The notes below the pieces were generated by a model. That model had not been told where the DNA came from and did not search any database. It saw only the letters and a list, made by a program, of their open reading frames with translations. From contig CAZTSR010000017.1 of NCBI GenBank assembly GCA_964615995.1, forward strand, positions 4,844-68,843: DNA of 64,000 nucleotides. Reading direction: 5' to 3'. The DNA is from an uncultured Bacteroidales bacterium. Lineage in GTDB: Bacteria; Bacteroidota; Bacteroidia; Bacteroidales; UBA10428. The position numbers and the translations under genes are program-made. The number at the start of each line of letters is the position of its first letter. Positions within the stretch are counted from its first letter, which is position 1. Below, in pieces: positions 44,657-64,000 of this stretch.

Positions 44657-45654
44657 AACCGATATATCATATTGTTATTGCAATCTCTGCCATTCTGGTA
44701 TTATTATCGTCCTGCTTTGAAGAAGACAGCAGGGTACCTGAATATCCTTATACGGTTCATACCATTTCAGATTCTGTTCAGGTGAACAGGAGTTACTTTG
44801 ATTTTGAATCGGCAAGCATTTTAGCGGTTCATAAGAATGATATCTGGCAGCTTGCATTTGAATGTGGTGTGGATGGACACCGCATATTAACCAATTCTGA
44901 AGCATACTGGCTGATATACAATACCCATCAGAAGACACCAGAGCCTTCCGTTCAAATGCCTTATATCAATGCATCCATGTATGATATTCCGGGTCTGTGG
45001 CCTGATTCAACTGCAGTTGGAACATGGTTCAACACCAGTAATTCTGTTCGCACTTATACAAAGAATGTATACTTACTGGGGAAAATGGCATCCCCTTCCT
45101 TTCAGGAAGTTAAAGAGATCGTTTTTCTTGAATTAACGGATACTTCCTATACTTTTAGTTATCATGACCGCAGTACGGACACTTATGATACCGTTCTTAT
45201 ACCTAAAAACAACGAAGTGAATTTCGTTTATTATTCCTTTAGCACCCACACGTCATTTACCCCTGAGCCGCCCAAAACAGAGTACGATGTAATTTTCACC
45301 TCGTATTATGATATGGCCACCCTTTTTGGTATCACACAACCTTATCATGTAGGCGGGGGCTTTATCAATATTTACGCAACAGAAGCTGCATTGGACAGCA
45401 TTACTCCTTATGAGGCCATTGATTTAAATAAAGCGCTGGATACTGAGTTTAGCAGAAAAAGGGATATTCCGGGTTATAAATGGAAGGATGTCAATGTAGA
45501 CATCAGTTCTGTAAATGCCACATATAAAGTAAAACCTCATTACACGTATCTGTTCAAAACCCAGGAAGGGAACTATTTTAAACTCCGCTTCCTGAGCTAT
45601 TCACTTGAGGGAAAATCAGGTTTTCCTCAGTTTGAATTTGTCCGGCTCGAGTAA
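44653..45654 (+). CDS. HmuY-like lipoprotein (second paralog)
   Basis: ATGA overlap with the receptor stop. Lipobox LLSSCFE. Motifs WQLAFECG, YDVIFTSYYD and a C-terminal …YFKLRFLSYS…FEFVRLE. Confidence 0.55.
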   Translation: MKPIYHIVIAISAILVLLSSCFEEDSRVPEYPYTVHTISDSVQVNRSYFDFESASILAVHKNDIWQLAFECGVDGHRILTNSEAYWLIYNTHQKTPEPSVQMPYINASMYDIPGLWPDSTAVGTWFNTSNSVRTYTKNVYLLGKMASPSFQEVKEIVFLELTDTSYTFSYHDRSTDTYDTVLIPKNNEVNFVYYSFSTHTSFTPEPPKTEYDVIFTSYYDMATLFGITQPYHVGGGFINIYATEAALDSITPYEAIDLNKALDTEFSRKRDIPGYKWKDVNVDISSVNATYKVKPHYTYLFKTQEGNYFKLRFLSYSLEGKSGFPQFEFVRLE

Positions 45655-46697
45655 TTGAAAGCACTTTCCATCATCAGGAAAAAAGCCTGGGCCTCGACGG
45701 AAGTTCCGGGCTTGTCGAAATGCGGCGAGCCACAAGCGTCCTGAACAATTCCGTTTGAGTCCATTTTCTGTAAAGCTGCTTTTCGCATCCTATCAGCAGC
45801 TTCGCGATATATTGGATCAAGCCATCCGGAAGCTATACCGGTATAAATTCCGTATGCCAGCATTTGTGAAAGGTTTGTTTCCACAAACGTATCCGGTTGA
45901 TCCATCACATCATGAAATAATCCGTCATCACGCATGTATTTCAGGCATCCATCCAGCAATTCTTTTCCATAAATAACGAGTTCTGCCTTTAAGTCATTTC
46001 TTTCAGCCGGCAGCATATTGATCACTTTTGCAATTCCGGCGACCGTCCATCCGTTACCTCCTCCCCAGAATGCTTCTCGTTCATATTGTTTCTTATCCTC
46101 ATCCCACATATGATGAAGCAGTTTTGTCTGTGCATCAAACAGGTACTTTTTAAAACCCATGATTTGTTTAAAGGCTTCTTCATAATCACCCATTAATGCA
46201 AGAAAGGGAGGAGCCATAAAAGAAGAATCACTCCAAATCTGATTCCGGTCGTTTAAGTGATAAAGTATACCTTCAGAGGTTTTGGGCGCTGTCTTTTTCA
46301 GGTAGTTGTACATTTTATCGGCCGCTTCTTTGTATCGCAAATCGCCGGTTGTTTTTGATGCCAGAATTACAGCTTCGCCGTTGGAAGCAGGATCAGTGAT
46401 ACCCGGATCATTTCCGACAATGCCCAGCCGGCCGTCAGGAGTTTGCCTGACAATTGCATCCCTGGCAAACAGCACAGCCAGATCATCTCTTTTTGCTGCA
46501 ATTAATGCCTGCGAAGCAGTGCCTTGCTCCCATGCCATCCTTTGCATACAAAGCATTGCTTGAAGCGCTTTTTCAACAAGAGCATCACTATTTGAAGCAT
46601 CTGCATCTTTAGCAATACCAGCTTTGCATCCCACCATTCCGGTAAGGACCAAAGGCATGGAAAACGATGCTGCACTAATAAAACTTCGTCTTTTCAT
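45627..46697 (-). CDS. Glycoside hydrolase family 88/105-like (unsaturated glucuronyl/rhamnogalacturonyl hydrolase fold)
   Basis: 356 aa with a Tat-like/lipoprotein leader, MKRRSFISAASFSMPLVLTGMVGCKAG. The body resembles YteR/UGL-type (alpha/alpha)6 hydrolases (…WGGGNGW…). The 3' end overlaps the convergent gene by 28 nt. Confidence 0.65.
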   Translation of the reverse strand: MKRRSFISAASFSMPLVLTGMVGCKAGIAKDADASNSDALVEKALQAMLCMQRMAWEQGTASQALIAAKRDDLAVLFARDAIVRQTPDGRLGIVGNDPGITDPASNGEAVILASKTTGDLRYKEAADKMYNYLKKTAPKTSEGILYHLNDRNQIWSDSSFMAPPFLALMGDYEEAFKQIMGFKKYLFDAQTKLLHHMWDEDKKQYEREAFWGGGNGWTVAGIAKVINMLPAERNDLKAELVIYGKELLDGCLKYMRDDGLFHDVMDQPDTFVETNLSQMLAYGIYTGIASGWLDPIYREAADRMRKAALQKMDSNGIVQDACGSPHFDKPGTSVEAQAFFLMMESAFNYSSRTNSN

Positions 46698-46698
46698 G

Positions 46699-47649
46699 TT
46701 ATTCAGATTTTTGACAATGACATGGAACGCGTTCTATATAGATCTGTTGTAGGTTCATGGCAACCAATCGTTCCGTTCGGGCAACTATACAATCGGGACA
46801 ATCCGAAAACAGTTTCAAATCCCAAGTGTCTGCAAAAACGCGGCCTTGCTGCTTTGAAATTCCATATTCCAGAACAGTTTCAAGAGCATTTAGGGATGGC
46901 GGCGTAAAGAGACCCTGCTTAAGAAGAAGATCCATGGCTCCGTTTCCAGGGCGAACCGGGATTACCACACAACATTCGATTCCCGTGTCGAACGCGTAAT
47001 CAATCGACTTCTGAGCCCAGTAAATCCCTTCCTCTTCATTTAAAAATGGAGGTCGTACCAATATGAAAGCACGTGTCCGAATCTGGTGCCGGCTTAAAAA
47101 TTGAACGGCATTTTGAAATTGTTCCAGAGTCATCCGCTTATTCAGTTGTTTCAGCACTTCGGGATGAACAGTTTCCAAACCCAGCGCAACCTGCAATTGA
47201 GGAGATAGCATATCACGAAAATCCATACACGATTGATTTATAAACCGTGGATGACTTTCAACAACCACCGTTTTAAAATCCTTCAATAAAGCGGCTATAT
47301 CAGGATAATCTTCGGGCGGTATGGCCTGATGATCGAAAAAGCTGCCGCTATTATAAAGCTTGATATGCGAAATGCCGGGCATCTGCTTCAACGCAAAAGC
47401 AATCTGAGCGGGAACAGAACCAACAAGCACTTTGGACTGCGTGGTGTTCTTCCATAAGTCGCACATCAGACAACGAAAAGGACATTCCCGATTTGTCAGA
47501 AAAATAATTCCGGTATCCTCAATCGTACCCGAATGAGTCCTTTCTTTTTCGACCAACCACCCGTAAGGCTTTCCCGGATCCACCGGATTCCTGGCTCCCC
47601 GTTTGGAAATCACCCAGGAATCAGATATATCGGGTCGGAGATTATTCAT
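46699..47649 (-). CDS. Radical SAM enzyme of unknown function
   Basis: 316 aa with a CxxxCxxC motif (RECPFRCLMCDLW). KLYNSGSFFD resembles the Elp3/RaSEA-type TIM-barrel radical SAM group. A C-terminal CPDC…CHC motif may bind an auxiliary metal. Confidence 0.8.
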   Translation of the reverse strand: MNNLRPDISDSWVISKRGARNPVDPGKPYGWLVEKERTHSGTIEDTGIIFLTNRECPFRCLMCDLWKNTTQSKVLVGSVPAQIAFALKQMPGISHIKLYNSGSFFDHQAIPPEDYPDIAALLKDFKTVVVESHPRFINQSCMDFRDMLSPQLQVALGLETVHPEVLKQLNKRMTLEQFQNAVQFLSRHQIRTRAFILVRPPFLNEEEGIYWAQKSIDYAFDTGIECCVVIPVRPGNGAMDLLLKQGLFTPPSLNALETVLEYGISKQQGRVFADTWDLKLFSDCPDCIVARTERLVAMNLQQIYIERVPCHCQKSE

Positions 47650-48970
47650 AACTCGACAGGAACTCTTTCCTGTATTCGATCTCCTTCAAAGGAAAGTGTT
47701 TCTTAAAGGCATTTTCAGATGCTGCGCCATGCTGGAATCTGCGCTTTTGATATACAGGCATATCCATACCGGTAACAGCTTTTACGCCGGCAGATACGAT
47801 TTGCCCTTTTAAATCATATAATTTGTTATGATCCCAGTTTGTCAGGTCGATGTATGGAATACCTTCGGAGATCTCAATCACATTAGGCAGGGTATATGGA
47901 CTGAATCCCTCAAATCCAAACAGTGCAGAAGGAGCAAGGGTACGCATGTATCCGCGACTCAATCCACCTGAGTATGTCAGTGAATGTTTAATGGATGCCA
48001 CACCCCAACCCTCATGGTAAAGCATCAGGTTATTGAGAACACTGCGGATGGTAAGCTCGGGGTTTTCCTCAATGGGATAATCTTTTAAGTTTTCATCTCC
48101 TCCTTCACCATCCAGAATGTATTTCCATTCAGGATATTTTGATCTGATTCCTTTTAATAAAGCCACGTTCATAGTAGCAGATTGAATATCAAGAGGTTTA
48201 TAATCCTCAACAATCTGAACAGTCTTTTTCCAGTCGAGGGTTTCGTAAGATACTTCAACAGGCTCGAGGAACATTTCAAGATTCAGTGCTTCCAGAAATT
48301 GCCTTGCCTGTACGAGATCCTCTCCTCCGCCGTCTATGCTCAGTGTAAAAGCTTTCAGACGTGAAGGGCTTTGTCCAAGCTCTCTCAGCGCATGGTATGT
48401 CAATAGAAAAACAGATCCGCTGTCGATTCCTGCAGAGAAAGTGACACCAACAGGACCTTGTGTGGCTCTGAATTGAAGCCATTTTTTAATTTCATTATAG
48501 AGTGTTCCTATATATCTCGTTTCAATAGCTTCCAGCTGATCTGTGCCGAATGCATTTCGTCTGGGAGTAAAGAACCGGTCGTATACCGGATTGGGGTCAG
48601 GACAACCCAGCAATTGTATGGTGGTGATATAATGAGCCGGAACCATGCGGGTATACGAAGGATGAAACTGATCATCAAGTTTCTCTTCAACCAGATATCT
48701 GAAAATCTCATCAATTCTTTCGGCAATAACCAGACTGGGTCCTGCTGCCTTTTTAGCAATAAAATAACGAAGGGGCCGTCCGATGGAACGGGCCATGCGG
48801 ATTGTCTTTCCATCTACCGATATCAATGCAAACTGTCCGTCGATATTTCTCACAGCCTCAGTATTACCGGTTTTTAGTACCGCTACTGCCTCTTCATGTG
48901 TCATGTTGTAGATCACATTTTTTGAGGGATCGGTGAGGTCTATTACTCTTTCAATATATTGATGGTCCAT
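47642..48970 (-). CDS. Asparagine-synthetase-like ATP-dependent (PP-loop) amidoligase lacking the N-terminal glutaminase Cys
   Basis: 442 aa. A remnant Ntn domain (DGQFALISVDGKTIRMARSIGRPLRYF) has no Cys2. The PP-loop variant is GVTFSAGIDSGSV. An 8-nt overlap joins it to the radical SAM gene. Confidence 0.75.
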   Translation of the reverse strand: MDHQYIERVIDLTDPSKNVIYNMTHEEAVAVLKTGNTEAVRNIDGQFALISVDGKTIRMARSIGRPLRYFIAKKAAGPSLVIAERIDEIFRYLVEEKLDDQFHPSYTRMVPAHYITTIQLLGCPDPNPVYDRFFTPRRNAFGTDQLEAIETRYIGTLYNEIKKWLQFRATQGPVGVTFSAGIDSGSVFLLTYHALRELGQSPSRLKAFTLSIDGGGEDLVQARQFLEALNLEMFLEPVEVSYETLDWKKTVQIVEDYKPLDIQSATMNVALLKGIRSKYPEWKYILDGEGGDENLKDYPIEENPELTIRSVLNNLMLYHEGWGVASIKHSLTYSGGLSRGYMRTLAPSALFGFEGFSPYTLPNVIEISEGIPYIDLTNWDHNKLYDLKGQIVSAGVKAVTGMDMPVYQKRRFQHGAASENAFKKHFPLKEIEYRKEFLSSYE

Positions 48971-48995: not shown

Positions 48996-50663
48996 CTACT
49001 TTTGAGATGTTATTCCTGATCCTTCAGTTATTGTGATATACCGGTTTATGGGAATGCCGGTATAGCTTTCTTTCTTTCCACCAGTCCATTGCACTTCTAT
49101 CCTGTCAATGGATGATTGCTTACCCAAACCAACGTGAATCCGCGGATCCATATTACTCAGATAGGCGACAGCCCATTGATTCACAAATACCTGCTTTTTA
49201 TCACCTGAGTATACAGTAACTGTAGAAGCAATTGCAGCCGCCCGGCCTTTTTTACCTACAAGGGTAATTCCGAGCCAGTGATTTTTGTTTCCGCCGTCGT
49301 TGCGCAATAAAGTAGCAGCAGCCTTCAGGTCGACATGAGAAATAATTACGTCCAGGTCACCATCGTTGTCATAATCCCAAACGGCAAGTCCCCTGCCCGA
49401 CCGTTTTTCTGCAAAATAACTTCCGTGTTCAGGACCCACATTTTTAAAGGAGCCTTTACCATCGTTTTCTAACAACAACGGATATTGAAGAATAAGCGCT
49501 TCCCCGTTTCCATTGGCAGAAATGATATCCAGATCCCCGTCGTTATCGTAATCAAACATGGCAGCTGCCCAACCACCTTTACCGGCAAGAGGACCGGATA
49601 TACCGCTGGTTTCTGATATATCTTCAAACAAACCGTTGCCCAGATTGCGATAAAGCGATCCGTATTCCAGATCCACCACAAGAATATCTGTTAAACCATC
49701 ACCATCAACATCTCCTAAGGTACCATGCATAGAACCGGTAGGTTTACCCTGAGTGTTGCCTGCCACTCCAATATTTTTGGCAACTTCAACAAAAGTGCCT
49801 GAATCGTTGCGAAACATATAATTATACTGATGATCGTTGGCCTGATAGATATCCATGTCCCCATCTGTGTCATAATCATATGGGGTAAGTCCCATGCATT
49901 TGGAATCGGGGAAATAGAGGCTGTTTTCACGGGTCACATCCTTAAAAGTACCATCAGCCTGCTGTTCATACAGCATCGAGGCCTGTCCCTTATATTCAGA
50001 TGGATGCGGCATAAGTCCCGGCGTTTTTGTGGATATATACTTCGGATCAAAAGCTAGAAAGTTGCCTACCATGACGTCCAGCAATCCATCGTTGTTGTAA
50101 TCCCAGAATGAAGCACCAATACTCCACTTCACAAAACCGTTCAATGTATCGGGACCAGCAAGGGCAGGAAAATGGGCAGTGATATCCGTAAAAGTACCGT
50201 TTCCGTTATTTTGAAAAAACCGGTTTGGACCGTAATTCAGCAGGAGCAGATCATCGAAACCATCTTTGTTTAAATCGACAGGTGCTGCAGCCATGCTCCA
50301 GATGGAATCGCCCAGTCCGGATTGCATCGTAACATCTGCAAAAGTCCCATCACCATTGTTTTTATAGAGTCTGTCCGTAGAATTTTTAAAACCCAGACCA
50401 CCAGTATCAGATATCCCTTCAATATATGTACCGTTAAGCAGATACACATCCATAGCGCCATCATTGTTGTAATCAAAAATGGTTATACCGGAGCCGCTGC
50501 TTTCAAGAATATTTTCGTAGTGATAATCGCCAAAAGTGTATTTGAAATCAATACCTGCAGAAGAAGCCACGTCAGTAAACACGACCTTCTTTTCCTTGCA
50601 GCCTGCAGTGAAACAAACAACAAAAACTGTAAAAATCAGAAACAGAAAAGGATTTTTTTTCAT
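48996..50663 (-). CDS. FG-GAP/VCBS-repeat lipoprotein with a C-terminal ASPIC/UnbV domain (CRTAC1-like)
   Basis: Lipobox FTAGCKE. Repeated Ca-binding DxNxDGxxD loops (DYNNDGAMDV, DYDNDGDLDI…). The C-terminus NHWLGITLVGKKG…RIHVGLG…IEVQWTGG is ASPIC/UnbV-like. Confidence 0.85.
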   Translation of the reverse strand: MKKNPFLFLIFTVFVVCFTAGCKEKKVVFTDVASSAGIDFKYTFGDYHYENILESSGSGITIFDYNNDGAMDVYLLNGTYIEGISDTGGLGFKNSTDRLYKNNGDGTFADVTMQSGLGDSIWSMAAAPVDLNKDGFDDLLLLNYGPNRFFQNNGNGTFTDITAHFPALAGPDTLNGFVKWSIGASFWDYNNDGLLDVMVGNFLAFDPKYISTKTPGLMPHPSEYKGQASMLYEQQADGTFKDVTRENSLYFPDSKCMGLTPYDYDTDGDMDIYQANDHQYNYMFRNDSGTFVEVAKNIGVAGNTQGKPTGSMHGTLGDVDGDGLTDILVVDLEYGSLYRNLGNGLFEDISETSGISGPLAGKGGWAAAMFDYDNDGDLDIISANGNGEALILQYPLLLENDGKGSFKNVGPEHGSYFAEKRSGRGLAVWDYDNDGDLDVIISHVDLKAAATLLRNDGGNKNHWLGITLVGKKGRAAAIASTVTVYSGDKKQVFVNQWAVAYLSNMDPRIHVGLGKQSSIDRIEVQWTGGKKESYTGIPINRYITITEGSGITSQK

Positions 50664-50676: not shown

Positions 50677-53600
50677 TTATTTTAATGCGTTTAAAAAGGG
50701 TTCCGCAGTAACTACACGGGTATTATACTTCCGGTTGTATTCTTTTAATACAGGATCATCGGGATAAGATTGATTTTCCGCAGGCGGATAGGAACCCATT
50801 CCATGCCATGGCAGTGGCAGTACAGTGCTTCCGGTAGCTGTGTTCAAATCGCCATCTTTAACCCAGCCCACACTGTGGATTAGAAAGTCGCGCTTCCAGC
50901 CTGGTTTCAATGGGGGGAGATTCCCGGCATTAAATACAACGGTAGTCTCATCTCCAGCATTGCTGATGATATACTGGTTGTCCGATCCCTGAAGTAGCGG
51001 CAATACATCTCCATATCTGGTATAGCAACCTTCAAGGTCATGCCATTTGGTTGCGGTGCTTACCTTGCTATAGTCGAACCAATGAGGTCCGAACCTTCCA
51101 CCCTTTCTGTACAATTCAGAAAATCCACGGTAATGGATATCGGCCTTCATAGGTTTCATGGGGGTTTTGACAACTGACACACCCGGAACCATACTTCCGA
51201 AAAAGATATGATCCCAGTATATTTCCATGTTGGTTACAATGCGAACACGATGATCGGCAGACAAAAACTTCCCGGAAAGGTCAATGACCATGGTCTTATC
51301 TTTTCCCATTGGAAAGCCCGCCTGATCGATAACAGTGACCCATTTCCCCTGTTTGTTCAGGACCTGAACAACAGGCGAATGAACCTGAACCGCCTTTGTT
51401 TGTGAAAGCGCCACATTAATACTGGCATCGGTAGGAAATATCCATCCATTCATAAACAACACCAGATTTTTTGGATCAACGTTCTTCCCGGGATCAAGAA
51501 TCAGAGTTTTCATATCTACCACACCCTGGTAGCGTGCAGGTTTCAAATCGGACAGGTAGACATCATCTTCGGCACTTATAAATGACAGTACATTGTTGTT
51601 TTGTTCATCCACCGCCGATATGGGTGCAATCTTATCTTTAATGATATAAATTTGATCGCCCGGGAAAGGAGGCGGTGTAAACTGTTCAGGTACAAAAAAG
51701 TCAATCGTCTGCGGATAATCCACAGCAACCAGCTCCAGTTCATCAAAATAGATGGTTTCCCAGAGTTCTGAGGTAATCTGTAGTGTATAAGTGCCGTTTT
51801 TTGGTTGCATCTGTTCAGCAGGAATCTTAATATAGTCGTCCGATGCATCGGCAAAACCATATTTTGTAGTTCCCCCCATGATGCCCAGAGGCATTCCAAG
51901 AGCACTTCTCCATAAGATATCCTTTACAAATGCAAATTCTTTACCATTCCATGCATACAAAAACGGACATGAACCTTTTAAAGTTTGTGATTCTACAAGC
52001 GATTGATCAGAACCCGGCATGAAAATATTCTGCGGCACGCCATTGGTCCATGTTATTCTCACCACATCGGCCTGGGTACGATTTCCCAGTCCAAAATGAA
52101 CATTGGGATCAGTAACAACCATGGTCTGATATAGTGTTCCGGAACGCATTTCGATTTTAGCACCAATGCCAAAATGGTTGTTTTTTGCGCTGCCAGCTTT
52201 CAGACCTACCAGTTTCATTTTCAGAAAGTGATTCTGGTTTCCCCCGTCATTTCTGTATAAAAAGCTTCCTGCGTATAGTCCGGCAATGCCAAGGTCAATA
52301 TCTCCATCATCGTTGTAGTCAAACAGGGCAATCTGATGTGCAGGTTTTGTAACTTCCGGCATCAGATCACTTTTATCTGAGAAGACTCCCTTTCCGTCAT
52401 TTTGAAATATCCGTAAGGATTTACCCTGGGGTTCGGATGATTTTCCTGCCAGGACAATATCCAGAAACCCATCATTATTGTAATCAAAAAACCGTGCCTG
52501 ATATCCATTAAAGCCGCTTAATCCGGTAAAAGACTTTACCGCCTTATCATCCGATTTAAAGTGACCGTCTTTCAGGTTTTGCATGAGCTGATATTTCCCT
52601 TTGGTGCTGCCAAAGAAGAGATCGATAAAACCATCATTGTTGTAATCCCCAACGGCTACAAAGTCGGCTCCGGATAAGCCTTCCAAACCATTTTCAGAGG
52701 CCATATCTTTAAACTTTCCCTGACGCTGATTCAGATACAATGATACCGGAGCATTTTCACGGGTAACAACAAAATCGATATCCTCATCTCCGTCAAAGTC
52801 CCCAAAAGCACCATCGGTAGTGTTCTGATTGCCACCAGAAATACCCATAACAGATGCCTGTTCGGTAAACGATCCATCGGCATTGTTGCGATATAAAAGA
52901 TCAGCACCCTTCTTCAAAATCAGGAGATCGAGATCGCCATCATGATCAATATCAAAGAACAATGCCTTATTTCCACCAGTTTTATCGGTAATACCTGATT
53001 TTTGCGTAACATCCTTAAAGGTGCCAGCTCCGGCATTCCGGTATAATATATTTCCGCCTTCCTTCAGTATGAAAAGGTCCAGAAAACCATCATTGTCAAA
53101 GTCAGCAAAGGTAGCATCCGATTCCCTTCCCGAATGATTAATGCCTGCTTCAGCAGTAATATCAAGAAACCGTCCCATTTCATTGGTAAAAAGGAAGTGC
53201 TTATATGCAGATGAAGCACCATCAAAGCTTCCTGTATAAATATCTATATCCCCGTCACTATCGAAGTCAGCAGCTTCCATATGCGCATATGCAGGCTTAT
53301 CAGGAAGCTCAGATGGTTCTGTAACGAGGTTCAGGCCCACAGTGGTGGTTATATCCGTAAAACGGATAATACCATCCATAACAGTATTATTATCAGGGTT
53401 TTGCGCTTGCTGATCGAGCGTAATCAGCGGAAATCCAATAAGTGAACCGCCAGGACCTTTCAAATCCATAATGCTGGCCTGATAAGGAGATGACACTTTC
53501 AGGTAATTATGAAAGACCATGAAAGGAACAAGAGCGTTTTCAGCATTGCCCTGTTTGAGGAATTCCATTGTTTTTTCAAAATACGAAACGGCTTCAGCAG

Positions 53601-55478: not shown

Positions 55479-55508
55479 GATACAGGTTAACAAACCATCT
55501 TACAAGGA

Positions 55509-56372
55509 TTATGCAATAAATCTTCCAACCGCCTCAGCGATTTTGTTTAAATCGCTCATTAACGCACTGAATTCAGCAGGGCTGAGGGATTGTTTTCCAT
55601 CGCACAATGCTTCTTCAGGTTTGCAATGAACTTCCATGATAAGACCGTCGGCTCCTGCAGCAATGGCAGCTTTTGCCATTGAAGGAACCATCCATCTTAA
55701 ACCTGTTGCATGACTTGGATCAACGATTACAGGCAATCCGGTACGGCTTTTAAGCATAGGAATAGCACTGATATCAAGCGTATTGCGTGTAGAATTTTCA
55801 AAAGTCCTTATTCCTCTTTCACACAGAACAACCTGATCATTTCCTTGTGACAGAATGTATTCGGAAGCCAGTAAAAATTCATCAATGGTAGCCATCAAGC
55901 CGCGTTTCAGAAGGACAGGCTTCCGGATCATGCCGATTTCTTTCAGTAAGGAGTAATTCTGCATGTTGCGTGAACCAATCTGAATCATGTCCGCATATCG
56001 GCATACCACATCAATCTGCCGGACATCCATTACCTCAGTGACCACAGGAATTCCAAGTATGGTACCCACTTCATGGAGCAATTTCAGTCCCTCTTCTCCC
56101 AAACCCTGAAAGCTATGTGGTGAAGATCTGGGTTTAAAAGCACCGCCTCGTAAAATCCGCGCATTGCTTTTTTTAACGGAAACGGCTGTTTCATTCAGTT
56201 GTTGAAAATTTTCAACGGCACAGGGGCCGGCAATTACTACGATTCCCCTTCCGCCAATTTCAACATCGTTCACATGAACAAGGGTACTAAGAGTGCTGGA
56301 GTTTTCCATGATTTCTCCGGGCAAAGAATCTTTTGACGATCCCTCCACATTACACACATTTGTTTCCATCAC
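55509..56372 (-). CDS. 3-deoxy-7-phosphoheptulonate (DAHP) synthase, type I-beta, stand-alone
   Basis: Motifs [38 protein letters not shown] and CDGKQS. There is no fused chorismate mutase or regulatory domain beyond ~25 N-terminal residues. Confidence 0.9.
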
Positions 56373-57702: not shown

Positions 57703-58272
57703 TTATATTTTACTAACAGCATATACTTCCATTTCAAATAGCAGGGTCTCCCAGCAGAGTCTTACCTGTATACCCGTACTGGCGGGTAAAGGATCCAGAT
57801 TCATCCAGTTGTAGAATGTTGTACGGATCTTGTTAAAATCGTCATAGTCACGTTCAATATCGCGAAGATAATTGGTTGTTCTAACCACATCGTGCCAGCT
57901 CATTCCTTCTGCATCCAGAAGTTTGGTTACATTACGGTAAGTTCTCCAAACCTGGGCTTTAAAATCTCCGATGTATTCAGCTTTTCCGTCTTCATTAACA
58001 CTGGCAGTACCTGAAATCAGCAGCACTTTGTAACCTCCAAAATCCAGACGAAGTGCTCTTGAAAATGAGGATGGCTTTTGATAATCAGAAGCTTCATTAA
58101 GCGTTCCCGGGATTGTTACGCGTTTTTTTTCGATTGGAGGACGTGTGGCATGTATTTCAGGCATTTTATATCCGGCAATTTCATTACCTGTTAAAATACC
58201 CAGTTTTTTCATTTCCTCACGCTCGTTCTCTGTAAGTCTGTTCAGATCAATTAGTATATTATTCTTATCCAT
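57703..58272 (-). CDS. YjgF/RidA-fold protein with a ~70-aa N-terminal extension (FkbO/Hyg5 chorismatase-like signature)
   Basis: 189 aa. The C-terminal ~120 aa have the RidA-fold pattern. The motif LLISGTASV resembles the ISGTAS signature I recall from chorismatases rather than the SGQ of canonical RidA. Confidence 0.6.
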   Translation of the reverse strand: MDKNNILIDLNRLTENEREEMKKLGILTGNEIAGYKMPEIHATRPPIEKKRVTIPGTLNEASDYQKPSSFSRALRLDFGGYKVLLISGTASVNEDGKAEYIGDFKAQVWRTYRNVTKLLDAEGMSWHDVVRTTNYLRDIERDYDDFNKIRTTFYNWMNLDPLPASTGIQVRLCWETLLFEMEVYAVSKI

Positions 58273-58312: not shown

Positions 58313-59497
58313 TTATTTGATTACTTCACCGCGACTTAAGCCGTTAGAAGTTGCGACCCAAACTACGTCACCTTTGGCCTCCGCATTAATTACGAAGCTG
58401 TGTGCAATACCAGGTGACTGTGGGATCACTTTTTTCTCTTCCCCGCTGGTAACAATGGCTACACCATTTCCATCATTCTCATTCCTTTTATATGTAACCC
58501 ATGATGTTCCGTCTGTGGTACTAAAACCTTTGTCGGTACAAGCGTATGCCACCCTGCCGTTTACTTTGACAAAATTCATAAAGTTGCTGGCCAGTCCGCT
58601 GTCATGATCAAAATAGCCTTTCCAGTTTTTTCCGTCATACCGTGACATTCCAAAATAGGATGATACCCACAAAATTCCATTGGCATATGCTGTTGCTGTA
58701 GTAATGTCGTGTACAGGACCGTCATCCGGAAGCAGATCAATTTCCATAAAACCATCAGGATCTATATAATCTCTGAAATGCTTTGTTTTTTTGTTATATT
58801 CTATAACTCCTCCCCCCCAAGCTGCAATATAAATTTTACCGTCTCCTTCACAAAGTGCGTATGTCCATGGTTCATGCATAGGCGCATTCATTTCGGTAAA
58901 AATTTCCCATTCTTTGGTAAATGTATCATAATGGCCTACTCCACCACCCGTGGCAACCCAAACATCTTTTCCGTCGCATACCACATTATAAACCAAATCA
59001 TTAGGCATTCCACTGTTGAGTTGGTCGAATTTTTCAAATTTGCCTGCAGACCACCTGTTTAAACCACCTAATGTGCCAATCCAAACATCTCCGGTAACAG
59101 GGCTAACATCAACTGAAACTATACCATTGTGTGCTAGTCCATCCTTAGTTGTATATGTTTTCCACTTCCCGTCCTCATAAACAGCCAAACCATGATGAGT
59201 TCCTGCAAAAACTCTTTCCCCATCAATCTTCACTGTATATACCCGGTTGGCAGGAAGTCCGTTTTTGGTAGTAAAATTCTTCCAGTTTCCATAAACCGGC
59301 ATTCCATGAGCCTCTTTTACCGATTTGGTAGAGGAGGGCCCAAAGACATAACTTCCATCGGCTTTGGAAGCTTCAGATGTATGCACTTCTTCCCCTGCGA
59401 CACCTCCGGGCGTCTTTTTAACCAGCAGGACAGTAACGACAATAGCTACTATAAGCACTGCTACGGCGACTAAATACTTTAAAGCTTTGGATTTCAT
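58313..59497 (-). CDS. Membrane-anchored beta-propeller protein ('two-component regulator propeller'-type repeats)
   Basis: 394 aa with an N-terminal TM anchor (YLVAVAVLIVAIVVTVLLV). It has repeated …GL..N.V..V…G.VW(V/I)(A/G)T..GL… blades. Confidence 0.75.
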   Translation of the reverse strand: MKSKALKYLVAVAVLIVAIVVTVLLVKKTPGGVAGEEVHTSEASKADGSYVFGPSSTKSVKEAHGMPVYGNWKNFTTKNGLPANRVYTVKIDGERVFAGTHHGLAVYEDGKWKTYTTKDGLAHNGIVSVDVSPVTGDVWIGTLGGLNRWSAGKFEKFDQLNSGMPNDLVYNVVCDGKDVWVATGGGVGHYDTFTKEWEIFTEMNAPMHEPWTYALCEGDGKIYIAAWGGGVIEYNKKTKHFRDYIDPDGFMEIDLLPDDGPVHDITTATAYANGILWVSSYFGMSRYDGKNWKGYFDHDSGLASNFMNFVKVNGRVAYACTDKGFSTTDGTSWVTYKRNENDGNGVAIVTSGEEKKVIPQSPGIAHSFVINAEAKGDVVWVATSNGLSRGEVIK

Positions 59498-59531: not shown

Positions 59532-61550
59532 TTATTTATTCTTGCTATCAAATTTTTCATACTCGGGAGAACGCAATGATTTTAAATACTCTACAAGAAA
59601 ATTAAGTTCCATTTTTGTGAGGTCATTAACGATTCCATGTTCTTCTGTTTTTCCATAATTGGTCCATATTTCCTCGAGTGTTTTGGCGCGGCCATCATGG
59701 AGATATGGTGAGGATGCATAAATATTATTCAGGTGCGGTGTATCAAACATAATGGAATCATCAGTAGCGGCAAGTGTTCCCACGTCAAACATTTTTTTAT
59801 TAGTATAATATGGTGCCGGATGACAAAACACACATCGGCCTTTATCAGGCAAAGGCTTCCCATAATTGTCGTGGGTACGTTCAAATATTGCTTTACCAAG
59901 CAACTGTTTTTGAGTTAATTGGCCATTTGGATTGTACAACAGATTTGGAGGGTTATCTATTCCGGTCATGATGTATGATGCCAATGCATCAAGATCATCA
60001 TAATTGAAAGGTTCATTCCTTGTAAGAACCGTGGAAAAACGCATTCCATCCTGTTTATAAACTGTGGCATTTTTCCCATTCCATTTATAGGGTGCGGTTT
60101 CACCTACTTCGCGAAGTGATTGCGTATTGGTAACGTTACGTCCCATATCTTTCGAGGCCATATTGTATGCAAGGCCGTCTTCGTGGGCGTCAGGATGACA
60201 CGTGTAACATGAGAACTGCGTTTGAAAAGTTCCCCCTGCATTATTCATAAGTCTTCTGCCCTGCCGGCCAACGGTTATTCTTCCCGGGCCTCCTAAATCA
60301 ATGGTTTTTTCGGTTTTGCAGGTTTCGGTATTAATAACACCTATACGATCTTCAAGATGTTCAGCAACATACAGCTTTTTTCCATCAGCAGAAAGTGCCA
60401 AACCTTTCGGATTGATTCCTGTGGGTATCCGCGCCATCATATACCTGTTGCTGATGCCCATATCGTTAGCATATAATTTGAGGGTTTCAGGATTTTTTTC
60501 AGTTAATACGGCACGTACAGAATCCACATCGATTACGGAAACAAAATCTACTCCTGCGCTGGAAATAAAAGCCCTTTTGCCGTCGGGACTCACTACAATA
60601 TCGAACGGATCAGCGAAATATCTGTTAGGTTCATCAATGAGTAATTCCACGACCCTTCCTCCTGGCTTCATTTCAATGACCCCAAACCCGTGTGTCATCA
60701 TCCAGCCCCTATCTACCTGAACTGTAGTAATATTATTTTTGGGCCTGATCATTGTAAAAAACGCAAGATCCCCAGATGGTGTAAAAGATATGTTTTCCAT
60801 CAAATAAGCCTGCTCAATGCCTTTTCTTTCAATAACAACATGTTTTTGATCATCAACCACCGTAATTTCACAATTAACAGCTTCATCATAAGGCAGGCTC
60901 ATAGTACGTCTGCTTGTAACCAGAAGTTTGCTTCCATCAGGAGTTGCTTCAATTCCTGTAGGGTTATTCCCGGTTGTTAACCGGCGAACTTCTTCCTTGG
61001 TTTTCAAGTCAATGACGGATAAGTTTGAAGAATAAGAATCCACAACATACAGAAAACCTCCATCAGCACTTAAAGCTAGTCCTGCAGGTCCGTCACCGGT
61101 GGCTATTGTATCAACGACTTCCAGTTCTTTCAGATCAATAACTGATACCGTATTGGACCATTGATTGCTCACATAAGCTCTCGATCCATCTTTATTCAGA
61201 ATAACACTGTGTGGACGTGTTCCTACCTTAATTTTTCTGACTACTTTATCTTTTTTTGAATCAACAACCAGAAGGACATTCCCTTCTTCAGCAACCACAT
61301 ACATTCTTTCTCCATTTTCAGAAACTGCCAGGTTGAACGGAGAATAATACTCTGTATTTGTAATATTATGTATCAAACCTGATTGTTGCATATGTAAATG
61401 GCAGGAAGCGCAATTCAGCGGATGATCTTCAACAGCGGTTTTTTCATTAACATGTGCTCTGGCCCAACGATGAAAAGACGGGTATTTGATTGCGATAATC
61501 AGGGCTAATGAAAGCACAATGGCCAGTGTAATTATGAGCGATTTTTTCAT
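59532..61550 (-). CDS. YVTN-type beta-propeller fused to a di-heme cytochrome c peroxidase/MauG-like domain, with an extra N-terminal heme site (3 CxxCH)
   Basis: 672 aa with an N-terminal anchor or signal. The CxxCH motifs are CASCH, CYTCH and CVFCH. Propeller repeats include (…RPHSVILNKDGSRAYVSNQWSNTVSVIDL…, …PAGLALSADGGFLYVVDSYSSNLSVIDL…). The C-terminal third is CCP-like (…PHLNNIYASSPYLHDG…). Confidence 0.85.
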   Translation of the reverse strand: MKKSLIITLAIVLSLALIIAIKYPSFHRWARAHVNEKTAVEDHPLNCASCHLHMQQSGLIHNITNTEYYSPFNLAVSENGERMYVVAEEGNVLLVVDSKKDKVVRKIKVGTRPHSVILNKDGSRAYVSNQWSNTVSVIDLKELEVVDTIATGDGPAGLALSADGGFLYVVDSYSSNLSVIDLKTKEEVRRLTTGNNPTGIEATPDGSKLLVTSRRTMSLPYDEAVNCEITVVDDQKHVVIERKGIEQAYLMENISFTPSGDLAFFTMIRPKNNITTVQVDRGWMMTHGFGVIEMKPGGRVVELLIDEPNRYFADPFDIVVSPDGKRAFISSAGVDFVSVIDVDSVRAVLTEKNPETLKLYANDMGISNRYMMARIPTGINPKGLALSADGKKLYVAEHLEDRIGVINTETCKTEKTIDLGGPGRITVGRQGRRLMNNAGGTFQTQFSCYTCHPDAHEDGLAYNMASKDMGRNVTNTQSLREVGETAPYKWNGKNATVYKQDGMRFSTVLTRNEPFNYDDLDALASYIMTGIDNPPNLLYNPNGQLTQKQLLGKAIFERTHDNYGKPLPDKGRCVFCHPAPYYTNKKMFDVGTLAATDDSIMFDTPHLNNIYASSPYLHDGRAKTLEEIWTNYGKTEEHGIVNDLTKMELNFLVEYLKSLRSPEYEKFDSKNK

Positions 61551-61551: not shown

Positions 61552-62988
61552 CTATTCTAATTCGACTTCTTTTTCAAGAACTTCAGTAATAACCACGGGA
61601 ATAATCACAGGATCCTTTTTAATAGCAAGAGGAACAATGTTCTCAGGTGCCAGTTCAGGATTATCGTAAAAACTCACAACGCCTCGCCTTTCATTAGGAC
61701 GCAGCCACATCCAATTTCCTGGACCCAACACCACTTTTCCATTTTGATCCAGTGTCTGAATACGGAAAGGGGTATCGGCCATCACTTTAAGATAAATTGA
61801 TCCGTCTTTCTCTGCTTGCACAATGCCATAACTTGATTTTATACCCAAGACTTCTATACGGTCGGCTTTTCTGAAATCAACTGAAGGATGAAGAACTTGC
61901 TGAGTACTATAATTGAGGTCCAGACATACCAACAGTCCGGTTTTTACACCCATATCGACTTCACTGGGCAACTTTTTTGGACGATCATGCACGAGAACTT
62001 CAATGACGTCAGTCACATTCATTTTATCATTACTGTATATGCATTTGCCCAATTGTTCCTGAGCAATATCAAAGTCATAGATTGCAAATGGTTTATTTTC
62101 CACGGAGCATGACACCCATAATTGATCGGATGATGAAGGGAAAACAGCATTAAAACTGCCTGATATGTTTGATGAATGATTTTTCTTACTGGTGGATGGT
62201 CTGTTATAACTTATGGATAATATGTCACTTTGTTTCTTCAGTGTATCTGTTTCAACAAAGAATAGTCTGTCATGATTGCGTTCACGCATGCGATTTACCA
62301 GTATACATCCCGGATTTCCATCATAAAGCGGATCGGCTTTAGTTCCGTCGTGTCTCAAAACCATGTATGCCGGATCGTTTTTTACGGGCAGTAGCTGACG
62401 GACTATCGTAACCACACGACCATCCATGAGTACTACAGATCCAAAGCAATTTTGCGGTGAGAAGGTAATTTGTTTGATTTCACTTCCATCAATCCGTGAT
62501 GTAAACAGTTCATGCCGGTTACCCAATGAATCATCGGAAACTTCCATACTGTATACCAACTGATCCATGGGCAGGTATACCGGATCGGTGCAATTGTGAT
62601 CTGTATTGGTTATCTTATGAAAGGTGTTCTTATCGAGGTCCATTTCCCATATCTGCCAGAGATCATGCGCTTCCTTTTGTCCGGCAAAAAGTAGATGCCT
62701 GCCATCCCAGGATAAATCAGGAGAACAGGCTGAATAGAAGTCCTTTGTTAATATGACTTCTGAGGAAAGGTTATTTGGATCGACTGTAGCAATCTGTGAT
62801 CCTGAAATAAATCTCCATCCCTTACCATTTTTAAAATCAGGAGCAGTATTACTTGAAGGCGACAAAGTAACAATCAGCATACCATCCTGAATTTCAGATT
62901 TGCATGAAAACAAAAGGAGTGCGCACAACCCGGCAAAAGAAAATGAAAAAAACAAGCGTGAGATTTTCGTATTCATTGTTCTGCTCAA
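61552..62988 (-). CDS. TolB/PD40-like beta-propeller lipoprotein with a C-terminal beta-sandwich-like domain and no heme motif
   Basis: 478 aa with lipobox LLFSCKS. The PD40-like pattern is SPDLSWDGRHLLFAGQ…IWEMDLD…. The C-terminal TPFRIQTLDQNGKVVLGPGNWMWLRPNERRGVV resembles a motif that in homologs I recall is followed by C.GCHE. Here the CxxCH is absent. Confidence 0.7.
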   Translation of the reverse strand: MSRTMNTKISRLFFSFSFAGLCALLLFSCKSEIQDGMLIVTLSPSSNTAPDFKNGKGWRFISGSQIATVDPNNLSSEVILTKDFYSACSPDLSWDGRHLLFAGQKEAHDLWQIWEMDLDKNTFHKITNTDHNCTDPVYLPMDQLVYSMEVSDDSLGNRHELFTSRIDGSEIKQITFSPQNCFGSVVLMDGRVVTIVRQLLPVKNDPAYMVLRHDGTKADPLYDGNPGCILVNRMRERNHDRLFFVETDTLKKQSDILSISYNRPSTSKKNHSSNISGSFNAVFPSSSDQLWVSCSVENKPFAIYDFDIAQEQLGKCIYSNDKMNVTDVIEVLVHDRPKKLPSEVDMGVKTGLLVCLDLNYSTQQVLHPSVDFRKADRIEVLGIKSSYGIVQAEKDGSIYLKVMADTPFRIQTLDQNGKVVLGPGNWMWLRPNERRGVVSFYDNPELAPENIVPLAIKKDPVIIPVVITEVLEKEVELE

Positions 62989-64000
62989 TTACTGTTCTTT
63001 AATGTCAATGATTTGGTTGGCCTTAATATTTGACAGCACCTGCACTTTTCCTGATGGCCATTTCACTTCAATTTTTCCTGCGATATCATTTTTTGCCAAT
63101 CCAAAATGCAATCTCGGATCATTTTGTGAAAGGTATCCGACTGTGCTTTTCTTTTGGTTTACCTGGGTTTTACCACCTGAAGTCACTCTTACAATAGCTC
63201 CAATACCATCATGGTTACTGGTAGTACCTTTCAGGTTTATAGTAATCCAGTTATTCTGGTTTCCTTTGTTATTTCTAAGAAACCTACAATGGTCGTTGAG
63301 ATTCACGATAAACACATCCAAATCGCCGTCATTGTCATAATCGCCGATGCAACTTCCCCTGCCTACATATTCCTTGCTAAAATAGGATCCCAGCTCAATT
63401 GAAATTTCATTAAACTTGCCGTCTCCCTCATTACTAAATAACTGGGATTCCTGACCGTATAAATGCTTCAGAGCACCATTGGTTTTATAAATATCTACAT
63501 CGCCATCATTGTCATAATCCATAAAGGAGGATGACCAACCAACAAATTGAGCCGCCTTTGATGAGATCCCGGAAGACATGGCTTTATCAGCAAAGACACC
63601 ATTTCCCGCGTTCTCATAAAGAGAGCAATAGGTGTCATCAGACACAAAAATATCCAGAAGCTGGTCACCATTATAATCCGCAAAATCCACAGACATACTC
63701 ACGGTGGCCTCGCCACCCTGACTAAAAGCTGTACCTGATTTGGTTCCGATATCAACAAATTTTTTACCCCCTTCATTATGCCATAAATAGTTCAAAGTAT
63801 GGTCATTCGCAATATAGATATCTACAAATCCGTCCTCATCAACATCTGCAGCACCTACGCCCATGGCACGACCATCAACGTCTGCGATGCCAACTTCTTT
63901 TGTAACATCGGTAAATGTTCCGTCACCATTATTGTGATATAGAAAATCCGGCTGACTCTCATAAGCCATGGGTGGCGGGAAACCATCAGGAGCATAGAAA
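62989..64000 (-). CDS. FG-GAP/VCBS-repeat protein with an ASPIC/UnbV C-terminal domain (CRTAC1-like). The N-terminus lies beyond the window edge.
   Basis: The ORF track starts at an internal Met (63969), but the frame stays open to nt 64000 (…FYAPDGFPPP-MAYESQ…). It has DxDxDG loops and a C-terminal NNWITINLKGTTSNHDGIGA…LHFGLA…IEVKWPSG. There are 0 nt between its stop and the next start. Confidence 0.85.
   Translation of the reverse strand, partial: FYAPDGFPPPMAYESQPDFLYHNNGDGTFTDVTKEVGIADVDGRAMGVGAADVDEDGFVDIYIANDHTLNYLWHNEGGKKFVDIGTKSGTAFSQGGEATVSMSVDFADYNGDQLLDIFVSDDTYCSLYENAGNGVFADKAMSSGISSKAAQFVGWSSSFMDYDNDGDVDIYKTNGALKHLYGQESQLFSNEGDGKFNEISIELGSYFSKEYVGRGSCIGDYDNDGDLDVFIVNLNDHCRFLRNNKGNQNNWITINLKGTTSNHDGIGAIVRVTSGGKTQVNQKKSTVGYLSQNDPRLHFGLAKNDIAGKIEVKWPSGKVQVLSNIKANQIIDIKEQ

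Follow-up and report, generated by a model that had tools for sequence, protein, structure and literature searches.

An operon conserved among Bacteroidales is predicted to encode distant non-anammox homologues of hydrazine synthase subunits with a fixed set of partner proteins

To our knowledge, hydrazine synthase (HZS) was long regarded as an enzyme without relatives, and its evolutionary source is an open question. The enzyme characterised in anammox bacteria (PDB 5C2V; NCBIfam models NF052339 to NF052342) is built of three subunits, and its alpha subunit of about 800 amino acids (aa) carries two c-haems, the Tyr-ligated alpha-I with a Zn site and the bis-His alpha-II. Suarez et al. (2023, PMC10732223) suggested a broader HZS-like family with other substrates, and Hagglund et al. 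(2025, Genome Biol Evol, PMC12758564) described four clades of co-located genes for alpha-like and fused beta-gamma-like proteins. In the latter paper, clade III has a beta-gamma protein with one haem motif more, an FG-GAP/CRTAC1 gene on the upstream side of the alpha-like gene and, downstream, two genes for substrate-binding proteins; the authors conclude that key catalytic residues are not conserved, report Trp at the gamma-His144 position for clades I-III and propose no function, and their supplement lists Bacteroidales proteins, including the contig of one of the loci analysed here (L047). Here we analysed a window of 64,000 nucleotides (the whole stretch of DNA under study, on contig CAZTSR010000017.1 of assembly GCA_964615995.1) from an uncultured Bacteroidales bacterium, in which positions 45627-63969 are occupied by 13 open reading frames (ORFs), all on the minus strand and numbered g1 (45627-46697) to g13 (62989-63969). 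We conclude with high confidence that most of a conserved operon lies here; it codes for a homologue of the HZS complex of non-anammox type and for the fixed partner proteins that accompany it (Table 1).

Domain calls were made with Pfam and NCBIfam, the HZS equivalog cut-offs of the latter being 800 bits for alpha, 1250 for the beta-gamma fusion, 560 for beta and 625 for gamma. The product of g11 matched the fusion model NF052342 with E 4.6e-66 and 223.4 bits (cut-off 1250), NF052340 with 209.9 bits (cut-off 560) and NF052341 with 67.7 bits (cut-off 625). Its propeller (residues 65-408) aligned to residues 9-349 of the 352 residues of HZS beta (5c2v_B) with E 1.4e-51, and the profile of its C-terminal di-haem module reached HZS gamma (5c2v_C) with E 2.3e-24, as against 5e-6 for the best cytochrome c peroxidase (CCP) structure. 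With PF03150, the model of bacterial di-haem CCP/MauG, the whole-protein score of g11 is 31.8 bits (cut-off 25.6) and no single stretch passes; the module holds two CXXCH motifs, and weak matches below the cut-offs were obtained with TIGR04039 (1.6e-7), TIGR03791 (2e-5) and TIGR03907 (3e-13), models of the MbnH family, MauG and the beta subunit of quinohaemoprotein amine dehydrogenase (QHNDH). For g12, the HZS_alpha middle-domain model PF18582 gave 41.6 bits (cut-off 26.6) and NF052339 80.6 bits (cut-off 800), and the alignment with 5c2v_A (E 1.7e-14) runs through three collinear segments and stops at about residue 554 of that chain. Judged by these alignments, g11 and g12 are distant, non-anammox homologues of the HZS beta-gamma and alpha subunits, a relationship overlooked in the first-pass annotation of the window, which had seen in g12 a TolB-like propeller and in g11 a propeller fused to a tri-haem peroxidase/MauG-like module.

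As in anammox bacteria, the alpha-like and beta-gamma-like genes are adjacent, export is of the periplasmic type, the beta propeller, the gamma di-haem module and the alpha propeller with its middle domain all have homologous counterparts, and the beta-gamma fusion has its parallel in Ca. Scalindua. However, the identities amount to only about 23-37% and the scores lie far under the family cut-offs, g12 has no alpha-II domain, g11 adds an N-terminal haem and a membrane anchor, and the alpha-like gene lies upstream of the beta-gamma-like gene in the operon. Furthermore, the characterised three-subunit HZS comes without CRTAC1-like, Reg_prop, type-1 periplasmic binding protein (PBP1), Rid-like and DAHP synthase partners, and the hosts of the present operon are heterotrophic Bacteroidales.

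Three CXXCH motifs are found in g11 of 60 of the 61 Bacteroidales orthologues, and most relatives have four haems in total, as in HZS. With the HZS-gamma residue numbering derived from the CXXCH offset, the gamma-His144 position is occupied by Trp490, and opposite gamma-Cys165, through which HZS makes its third covalent haem link, the g11 profile has a gap. The 478-aa g12 lacks any CXXCH, and beyond g11 no other plausible CXXCH protein is present among the ORFs of the 64-kb window. In the alignment of alpha-like orthologues (n=53), 51 sequences carry RPNERRGC[IV]GCH near the C-terminus, whereas the window and its closest relative, L005, read RGVVSFY. Distant alpha-like homologues have exactly one CXXCH in 37 of 37 high-GC and 16 of 17 low-GC cases (the remaining one has two), at the same C-terminal site in the 14 sequences inspected. 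Since the window and L005 share the degenerate motif and two independent assemblies (L001 and L002) give a sequence identical to the window, the alpha haem has been lost in this lineage while every gene stays intact. Because Trp490 replaces gamma-His144, gamma-Cys165 falls in a gap and the alpha haem is missing, the complex is predicted not to make hydrazine as described for anammox bacteria.

To survey conservation among related bacteria, one genome per GTDB species was scanned with an alignment of g6, the highly conserved N-lobe motif of which served as the anchor. Out of 112 relatives 80 loci were kept, all of them in Bacteroidota metagenome-assembled genomes (MAGs) mostly labelled Bacteroidales. 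By tblastn and ORF mapping, the order histidine kinase-g13-g12-g11-g10-(g9)-g8-g7-g6-g5-g4-g3-g2 was found in essentially every sufficiently long locus; it recurs in up to 80 species-level genomes with median intergenic distances of -8 to 82 nt, much more often than chance could account for, and g7 is always in the Bacteroidales operon. Both flanks vary: beyond the two-component system there are GH97, FGGY/GH31 or SusC/D genes, and downstream of g2 PnuC-like, TonB-receptor or reverse FG-GAP genes. The operon-bearing Bacteroidales are heterotrophs, represented by MAGs from fen, peat, lake-sediment and anaerobic-bioreactor samples. Two side observations concern the integrity of single copies: in L004 (16085-17213) the g6 orthologue is split into two ORFs by a frameshift or assembly error, and in L003/L015 (6820-8529) an extra FG-GAP copy upstream of g12 is broken into pieces of 271 and 154 aa.

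The family extends far beyond this order. An exhaustive search of representative sequences with g11 yielded 2,059 proteins at E<=1e-30, with full-length relatives at 31-48% identity that have two, three or about ten haem motifs, and more than 2,000 g11 relatives were found at E<=1e-20 among 8,000 candidates scored. Joint Genome Institute (JGI) metagenome contigs scanned with an alignment of 15 g11 relatives gave 80 distant loci, 55 of them at 53-72% G+C; these high-GC loci are metagenome contigs without taxonomic assignment. In the high-GC loci g11 is 35-44% identical and the neighbourhood reads g7-g12-g13-g11-g10-g9-g8. Among the 21 well-covered ones, which have enough sequence on both sides, g12, g13, g10, g9 and g8 are each present in 21 and g7 in 12, and g3, g2, g4 and the kinase in none. 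The order is permuted in some loci (g9-g8-g7-g12-g13-g11-g10 in L154; g4-g3-g2 ahead of g13 in L086 and L087), and in high-GC lineages a PBP1 protein of about 650 aa joins a full g8-like domain to a g6-like N-lobe. The search of the 80 distant loci for a further conserved family, such as a transporter or a pathway enzyme, returned only antisense artefacts. The core comprises six genes, for an alpha-like protein, a CRTAC1-like protein, a beta-gamma-like protein, a Reg_prop propeller, a Rid-like protein and a PBP1 protein; DAHP synthase is a frequent member, whereas the tetratricopeptide-repeat (TPR) FG-GAP protein, the second FG-GAP protein, the AsnB-like/radical SAM pair and the two-component system are Bacteroidota additions. 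Since the same set is kept across such distances, in other orders and with fusions, there is strong evidence for a functional system. The adjacency whose absence would, by the first-pass annotation, have refuted the cluster is clearly kept in up to 80 species genomes and in distant loci; the co-occurrence it had asked about of radical SAM, AsnB-like, DAHP synthase, PBP1 and propeller-CCP genes is found in Bacteroidales but breaks down for the g3-g2 pair and partly for DAHP synthase in the distant loci.

Comparison with clade III places the operon more closely. The order g13-g12-g11 (gaps of 0 and 1 nt) corresponds to FG-GAP, alpha-like and beta-gamma-like genes, the three CXXCH of g11 (aa 47, 448 and 573) are one beyond the gamma pair, and g8 and g6 represent the two downstream Peripla_BP_6 genes. 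The earlier statement that no described system has such a composition no longer quite holds, as part of it was published in 2025 as clade III, and the arrangement of alpha-like, beta-gamma-like, FG-GAP and binding-protein genes is already on record as a sequence observation. Clades I-III are stated in that paper to retain the alpha-I haem site, which is lost in the lineage of the window, and its accessible text makes no mention of the Reg_prop propeller, the Rid-like protein, the DAHP synthase, the TPR-FG-GAP protein, the AsnB-like/radical SAM pair, the two-component system and the operator (PMC12758564). Judged by the searchable literature, what is new comprises the full Bacteroidales operon, the cross-phylum six-gene core with its Rid-like and Reg_prop proteins and frequent DAHP synthase, the operator and the haem-less alpha lineage.

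Calculated from the coordinates, the intergenic gaps from the right edge leftwards are 0, 1, 34, 40, 12, 25, 15, 125, 13, 25, -8 and 1 nt. Gaps, gene count and orientation agree with the first-pass annotation, all of whose domain calls were reproduced by the Pfam and NCBIfam HMM searches, and the mixture of exported redox/propeller proteins and cytoplasmic enzymes that it had pointed out was borne out, with a genuine DAHP synthase among the latter. No convincing terminator was found in any intergenic gap, again as first noted, the sole minus-strand intergenic match being a 5-bp stem in the 125-nt gap between g6 and g5. Rfam searches of the cluster and of four related loci detected neither a riboswitch nor any other RNA family. 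The sigma-70 promoter scan gave sites no commoner than in shuffles, the sigma-70 consensus being unsuited to Bacteroidota, and none of the internal gaps of the operon contains TAnnTTTG, the -7 motif of Bacteroidota. The frame of g13 is open up to base 64000, so the gene is cut by the edge of the window; on the public contig L001, which has identical g11, g12 and g13, it attains its full length of 566 aa and is preceded co-directionally by genes for a response regulator of OmpR type and a HAMP histidine kinase, and by a GH97 gene. At the other end, g1, a GH88-family hydrolase, is probably co-transcribed with the unit here, yet it is peripheral and lies outside the conserved unit, since no more than 4 of the 80 related genomes (L005-L008) have it next to the block. 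The 13-gene extent first given to the cluster therefore holds as to a conserved unit and needs correction at both ends, where g1 is peripheral, g13 is truncated and a two-component system lies beyond the edge. The mechanical ORF starts of g12 (TTG), g6 (TTG) and g7 (GTG) are probably too far upstream, the likely starts being ATG at 62976 for g12 (474 aa, in agreement with the gene calls on public contigs), ATG at 55478 for g6 and ATG at 56369 for g7. We also considered a polysaccharide-utilisation locus, given the GH88 and GH97 genes nearby, and rejected it: the unit contains no SusC/D, and neither g1 nor the upstream flank is conserved.

Table 1. Genes and sequence features of the operon in the window, with ORF lengths, median identities of Bacteroidales orthologues to the window and supporting domain scores; the last row refers to other loci.
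Feature	Position	Strand	ORF length (aa)	Median identity (%)	Description
g13	62989..64000	-	326	70	CRTAC1-like FG-GAP/UnbV_ASPIC propeller lipoprotein; FG-GAP_3 114 bits, UnbV_ASPIC 79 bits
g12	61552..62988	-	478	44	Hydrazine synthase alpha-like lipoprotein: propeller and HZS_alpha middle domain
g12 degenerate alpha-haem site	61666..61680	-			VVSFY where relatives have C[IV]GCH
g11	59532..61550	-	672	64	HZS beta-gamma-like fusion: N-terminal transmembrane anchor and c-haem, 7-bladed propeller, di-haem module of CCP/MauG/HZS-gamma type
g11 haem motif 1	61398..61412	-			CASCH, aa 47-51, directly after the membrane anchor; C47, C50 and H51 invariant in alignment A2
g11 haem motif 2	60195..60209	-			CYTCH, aa 448-452; ysCytCH aligns to ysCasCH of 5c2v_C, the haem gamma-I motif
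g11 KWNG	60075..60086	-			Invariant W490 at the gamma-His144 position; profile 'ykwnG' against 'fRHEG'
g11 haem motif 3	59820..59834	-			CVFCH, aa 573-577, equivalent to gamma-II
g10	58313..59497	-	394	65	Membrane-anchored single Reg_prop beta-propeller; PF07494 28 bits
g9	57703..58272	-	189	73	Cytoplasmic Rid (YjgF/L-PSP) family protein; PF01042 55.5 bits
g8	56398..57690	-	430	64	Exported type-1 periplasmic binding protein (Peripla_BP_6); PF13458 147 bits
g7	55509..56372	-	287	68	DAHP synthase type I-beta, cytoplasmic; NF006421 427 bits
g6	54360..55493	-	377	46	Second exported type-1 binding protein; PF13458 118 bits
g5	50677..54234	-	1185	60	TPR, FG-GAP and UnbV_ASPIC lipoprotein with 436-aa C-terminal domain; FG-GAP_3 168 bits
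g4	48996..50663	-	555	65	Third CRTAC1-like FG-GAP/UnbV_ASPIC lipoprotein; FG-GAP_3 157 bits, UnbV_ASPIC 56 bits
g3	47642..48970	-	442	77	AsnB-like PP-loop ATP-dependent amidoligase; PF00733 45 bits
g2	46699..47649	-	316	61	Radical SAM enzyme, TIGR01210 (RaSEA)-related; overlaps g3 by 8 nt
g1	45627..46697	-	356		Tat/lipobox GH88-family hydrolase with twin-arginine leader; PF07470 137 bits
g8-g6-like fusion ORFs	L109 13498-15438				Ten further high-GC ORFs in L101, L110, L119, L137, L141, L144, L146, L148, L154 and L163

The topology predictions give lipoproteins for g13, g12, g5 and g4, N-terminal anchors for g11 and g10 (transmembrane residues 1-19 each), Sec signals for g8 and g6 and a cytoplasmic location for g9, g7, g3 and g2. 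Besides its lipobox, which is seen in the full-length form on L001, g13 is characterised by always adjoining the alpha-like and beta-gamma-like genes. The propeller of g10 matched PDB 4a2l with E 1e-20, a type known as the periplasmic sensor domain of Bacteroides hybrid two-component systems, and its gene follows g11 in 71 of the 80 distant loci and in all 21 well-covered ones. The binding protein g8 is closest to amino-acid binders of the leucine-isoleucine-valine (LIV) type (PDB 4gnr, 6e-27; 3td9, 5e-24), the aromatic-acid binder 4evq following at 2e-8. The first-pass description of g5 as a 1185-aa protein with TPRs and an unassigned tail was confirmed, except that the tail without a Pfam match (at E<=1) comprises 436 aa (50680-51987, minus strand) and not about 480; across 68 orthologues its identity of 56-80% equals or exceeds that of the rest of the protein. 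The gene for g5 is present in all sufficiently long Bacteroidales loci, where g4 is conserved after it, and a g5-like gene lies nearby in 7 of the 21 well-covered distant loci.

Among the cytoplasmic proteins, g7 exceeded the cut-offs of NF006421 (427 bits, cut-off 335) and TIGR01361 (376 bits, cut-off 268), and its motifs for metal, PEP and E4P (AGPC.VE, LRGGA.KPR.SPY.FQG, DPSH and E.H..P..A..DG.QS) are kept in 100 family members, 27 of them distant. It comprises the catalytic domain without a regulatory domain and is a genuine and, judged by these motifs, catalytically intact DAHP synthase. The Rid-family protein g9 stayed below the RidA cut-off (TIGR00004, 40.8 bits, cut-off 106), and its orthologues all read PLPASTG where E. 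coli RidA, in what we take to be its reference sequence, has FPARS, with Ser in place of the catalytic Arg105. A chorismatase of the FkbO/Hyg5 type was considered for g9 on account of its SGTAS motif and weak matches to PF21168 (E 0.0015) and TIGR04444 (E 8e-5); it was rejected as an assignment and retained solely as a lead: the TIGR04444 score is 22 bits against a cut-off of 325, the protein is a single 189-aa Rid domain and not a pseudo-trimer of about 340 aa, and no chorismatase is found among the PDB sequence matches of g9.

The best-conserved gene of the cluster is g3 (71-90% identity). Its product begins with MDHQ and is devoid of the glutaminase Cys nucleophile, the PP-loop SAGIDS lies at aa 179-184, and the score of 36 bits against TIGR01536 (cut-off 267) does not support an asparagine synthetase B, only the PP-loop being kept; Pfam gave no match to the N-terminal domain. 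The AlphaFold2 (AF2) model of g3, built from homologues of only about 79% identity, has a mean confidence (pLDDT) of 37. Its neighbour g2 carries the CX3CX2C radical SAM motif (CPFRCLMC, aa 56-63) and scored 108.9 bits against the RaSEA model TIGR01210 (cut-off 212), which falls short of membership, its partner being AsnB-like and not ArcS. The AF2 model of g2 (pLDDT 87) is a radical SAM barrel, for which Foldseek found generic barrels only (such as PFL-AE, Elp3 and LipA, TM-score about 0.5). PDB sequence and profile searches gave no matches for g3 and g2, and no distant relatives of the two appeared among the matches listed, which comprised more than 8,000 near-identical Bacteroidales sequences. 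The two genes overlap (median -8 nt) and are fused into a single 756-aa ORF in L033 (16560-18830); the pair is translationally coupled. In archaeosine synthase, ArcS transfers lysine and radical SAM cleavage by RaSEA then completes the amidine (PMC11298593). The pair resembles this system in that g2 belongs to the wider TIGR01210 lineage and is obligately paired, overlapping or fused, with a putative nitrogen-donor-attaching enzyme, and differs in that g3 has an AsnB-type PP-loop and not the ArcS/TGT-fold, with no apparent tRNA or deazaguanine context. Because g3 is devoid of the glutaminase nucleophile and RaSEA acts after ArcS has attached lysine, g3-g2 could, by analogy, amidate a carboxylate by means of an amino-acid nitrogen donor that is later cleaved off by the radical enzyme.

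Regions upstream of g13 share a conspicuous repeat. Two to four direct TTTTAAT repeats are held by 23 of 42 such Bacteroidales regions, with 28 adjacent pairs at exactly 11-bp spacing as opposed to a mean of 0.015 in Markov shuffles. On L001, that is beyond base 64000 of the window, TTTTAAT occurs at 5040, 5051 and 5062 (span 5040-5068), 195-217 nt before the start of g13 and nowhere else in that locus; the distances vary in other loci. Tandem repeats one helical turn apart are the usual binding pattern of OmpR/PhoB-type regulators. Since the repeats match this pattern, control by the adjacent regulator is a reasonable assumption and they are probably its operator. The motifs TTTGCATAGTC and AAACAGGTTA also recur in the g13 upstream regions. 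The window itself has something similar to the g13 operator: TTAAT is repeated four times with 11-bp spacing at 38938-38980, shortly downstream of the gene for a second OmpR-type response regulator (38141-38821). These repeats are preceded by a CT-rich low-complexity tract (about 38840-38900), and a weaker repeat pair (41086-41103) is found upstream of the HmuY operon. With a chance expectation of 0.23 matches per window, this evidence is marginal.

In the remainder of the window, three genes (41601-45654, plus strand), an HmuY-like one, one for a TonB-dependent receptor and another HmuY-like one, form a putative haem-uptake cluster that converges on the operon, its last gene overlapping the end of g1 by 28 nt; the neighbouring locus needs three to four c-haems. 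In the left part of the window (18128-30823, minus strand, and 31272-35214), the ordinary respiratory housekeeping of a Bacteroidales chromosome is represented by a complex I (nuo) operon, a type-2 NADH dehydrogenase and a membrane H+-pyrophosphatase, and a tRNA gene lies at 17656-17742 (plus strand).

For the function of the complex, described enzymes of similar layout are the tri-haem quinol peroxidases E. coli YhjA/Ccp and A. actinomycetemcomitans quinol peroxidase, which share with g11 a transmembrane helix, an extra N-terminal c-haem and a periplasmic di-haem module of CCP type, fed by quinol in YhjA (PMC10301912). Such enzymes are used by anaerobes and facultative organisms at oxic/anoxic interfaces, where YhjA lets E. 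coli respire H2O2, and H2O2 inactivates DAHP synthase, resulting in requirements for amino acids of the aromatic and the branched-chain type (reviewed in PMC8115020). They differ from g11, which has an inserted 7-bladed propeller, needs partner subunits and carries a di-haem module nearer to HZS gamma than to CCPs. We favour reduction of a small oxidant because a peroxidase-like enzyme is here paired with DAHP synthase, LIV-type binding proteins and a Rid protein, and we tentatively propose a membrane-anchored periplasmic haem reductase/peroxidase with cytoplasmic support enzymes, a mechanism to which we give well under an even chance. By analogy with the 5C2V heterotrimer, g12 and g11 would form a periplasmic complex tethered by the g11 helix, probably together with g13, since the latter is always adjacent. 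Electrons would enter through the membrane-proximal N-terminal haem, as proposed for YhjA, and be passed on to the CCP/MauG-like di-haem site for the reduction of a small oxidant such as H2O2, NO or hydroxylamine; in most lineages the second, alpha-subunit haem may handle an intermediate or relay electrons, a site lost in the lineage of the window. The binding proteins and the Reg_prop propeller might capture or sense an amino-acid-like ligand, and the cytoplasmic enzymes might cope with or supply what the chemistry consumes or damages, namely the entry into aromatic biosynthesis and reactive C=N species. Identity and mechanism taken together, we give this best explanation about an even chance of being right.

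Several points weigh against it. The substrate and the catalytic direction are read from distant homology only, and the operon structure from gene spacing rather than transcripts. A whole propeller lies between the N-terminal haem of g11 and its di-haem module, so that a YhjA-like electron path is not established, and no transporter or quinol-oxidising partner is encoded in the operon. Radical SAM enzymes are themselves oxidant-sensitive, and compensation for stress would not obviously need the strict linkage of the Rid-like and PBP1 genes seen in 21 of 21 distant loci. In Bacteroidales, g9 is missing from 16 of 64 loci (present in 48), g10 and g8 then abutting, and g3-g2 is missing from 7 loci. 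The three FG-GAP proteins and the 436-aa tail of g5 are left unexplained by the mechanism.

An unlikely alternative, which goes back to the first-pass annotation, is that the unit serves the biosynthesis and extracytoplasmic processing of a shikimate-derived small molecule: DAHP synthase would raise the chorismate flux, the Rid/chorismatase-like and AsnB-like/radical SAM proteins would tailor an aromatic acid or amide, the PBP1 pair would bind the product outside, and the haem/propeller complex would oxidise or couple it or use it as a redox mediator. The genuine DAHP synthase, which the Bacteroidales operon never lacks and which 12 of 21 distant loci also have, agrees with this, as do the SGTAS motif and weak FkbO/Hyg5 matches of g9, the 4evq match (2e-8) within a family, Peripla_BP_6, that includes aromatic-acid binders, and the tight coupling of g3-g2, once fused and kept together even in the rearranged L086 and L087. 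However, no exporter and no other shikimate or tailoring enzyme was found in about 160 loci, the g3-g2 pair is absent from 21 of 21 and DAHP synthase from 9 of 21 distant loci, and g9, which is lacking in a quarter of the Bacteroidales loci (16/64), is a single 189-aa domain far under the chorismatase cut-off (22 against 325 bits), and among structural relatives of g8 the best ones are binders of amino acids and not of aromatic acids. Quite improbable, in our view, is a maturation of MauG/MbnH type, in which the di-haem module would modify an alpha-like, CRTAC1-like or PBP1 partner to create a protein-derived cofactor, or else a periplasmic dehydrogenase of quinoprotein type, formed by the propeller/haem complex itself, acting on amines or amino acids and supplied by the LIV-type binding proteins; the cytoplasmic enzymes of radical SAM and AsnB-like type would modify a subunit ahead of its export, in the manner of QhpD with QHNDH. 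Shared with MauG and MbnH are the di-haem CCP fold, a conserved inter-haem Trp of the CCP/MauG type (W490), weak model matches and genes linked to partner proteins, here obligate and always adjacent, and g8 is of the amino-acid-binding type; moreover, Rid-family proteins pair with deaminating enzymes. Yet the matches to MbnH-family, MauG and QHNDH-beta models remain below the cut-offs, the similarity of g11 to HZS gamma (E 2.3e-24) is far above that to any CCP/MauG-type structure (5e-6 or weaker), and g11 is fused to a propeller. Neither a substrate protein of methylamine dehydrogenase (MADH) or MbnP type nor a gene for a small cofactor-bearing subunit is present, the gaps being too short for one, distant loci are without g3-g2, and g9 is cytoplasmic and without the RidA arginine.

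A comparably improbable reading treats the six-gene core as a widespread, uncharacterised class of two-site periplasmic haem enzyme performing nitrogen chemistry on an organic, amino-acid-like substrate delivered by the binding protein, for example NO- or hydroxylamine-dependent N-N or N-O bond formation, in which case the cytoplasmic Rid-like enzyme would resolve a membrane-permeant C=N or N-O product. Far less credible is a genuine HZS or a cryptic anammox-type N-N bond formation in a heterotroph. The two HZS subunit families do lie next to each other, with homology along their full lengths, and most relatives have the four haems of HZS, but the scores reach 10-18% of the NCBIfam cut-offs, the alpha-like protein has 478 aa instead of about 800 and is haem-less in the window, with one canonical CXXCH only in relatives, gamma-His144 is changed to Trp and gamma-Cys165 is unaligned, the gene order is reversed relative to anammox bacteria, no other CXXCH protein occurs in the 64 kb, and Hagglund et al. 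reject such a function for clades I-III (PMC12758564). Equally remote is a mosaic of unrelated sub-operons adjacent only through shared Bacteroidales ancestry. Cytoplasmic and exported functions are indeed interleaved without a clear pathway logic, some genomes do without g9, some without g3-g2 and some without g1, and the 125-nt gap could hold an internal promoter; this explanation is nevertheless largely refuted by both flanks differing between genomes while the block stays intact, and by the recurrence of the same gene set at 35-44% identity in high-GC contigs with permuted orders and fusions.

Whichever chemistry applies, the operon shows that the homologous alpha/beta-gamma pair is common and comes with a fixed, cross-phylum set of partners. 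It would give the first functional context for bacterial CRTAC1/ASPIC proteins, and Prolixibacteraceae are among the carrier families, for which isolates may exist. If the nitrogen-chemistry reading were true, anaerobic heterotrophs would carry a free-living ancestral form of HZS chemistry. The operon thereby offers a route to the ancestry of HZS, with a likely regulator and its operator, candidate ligand-binding proteins and a natural variant with a haem-less alpha subunit.

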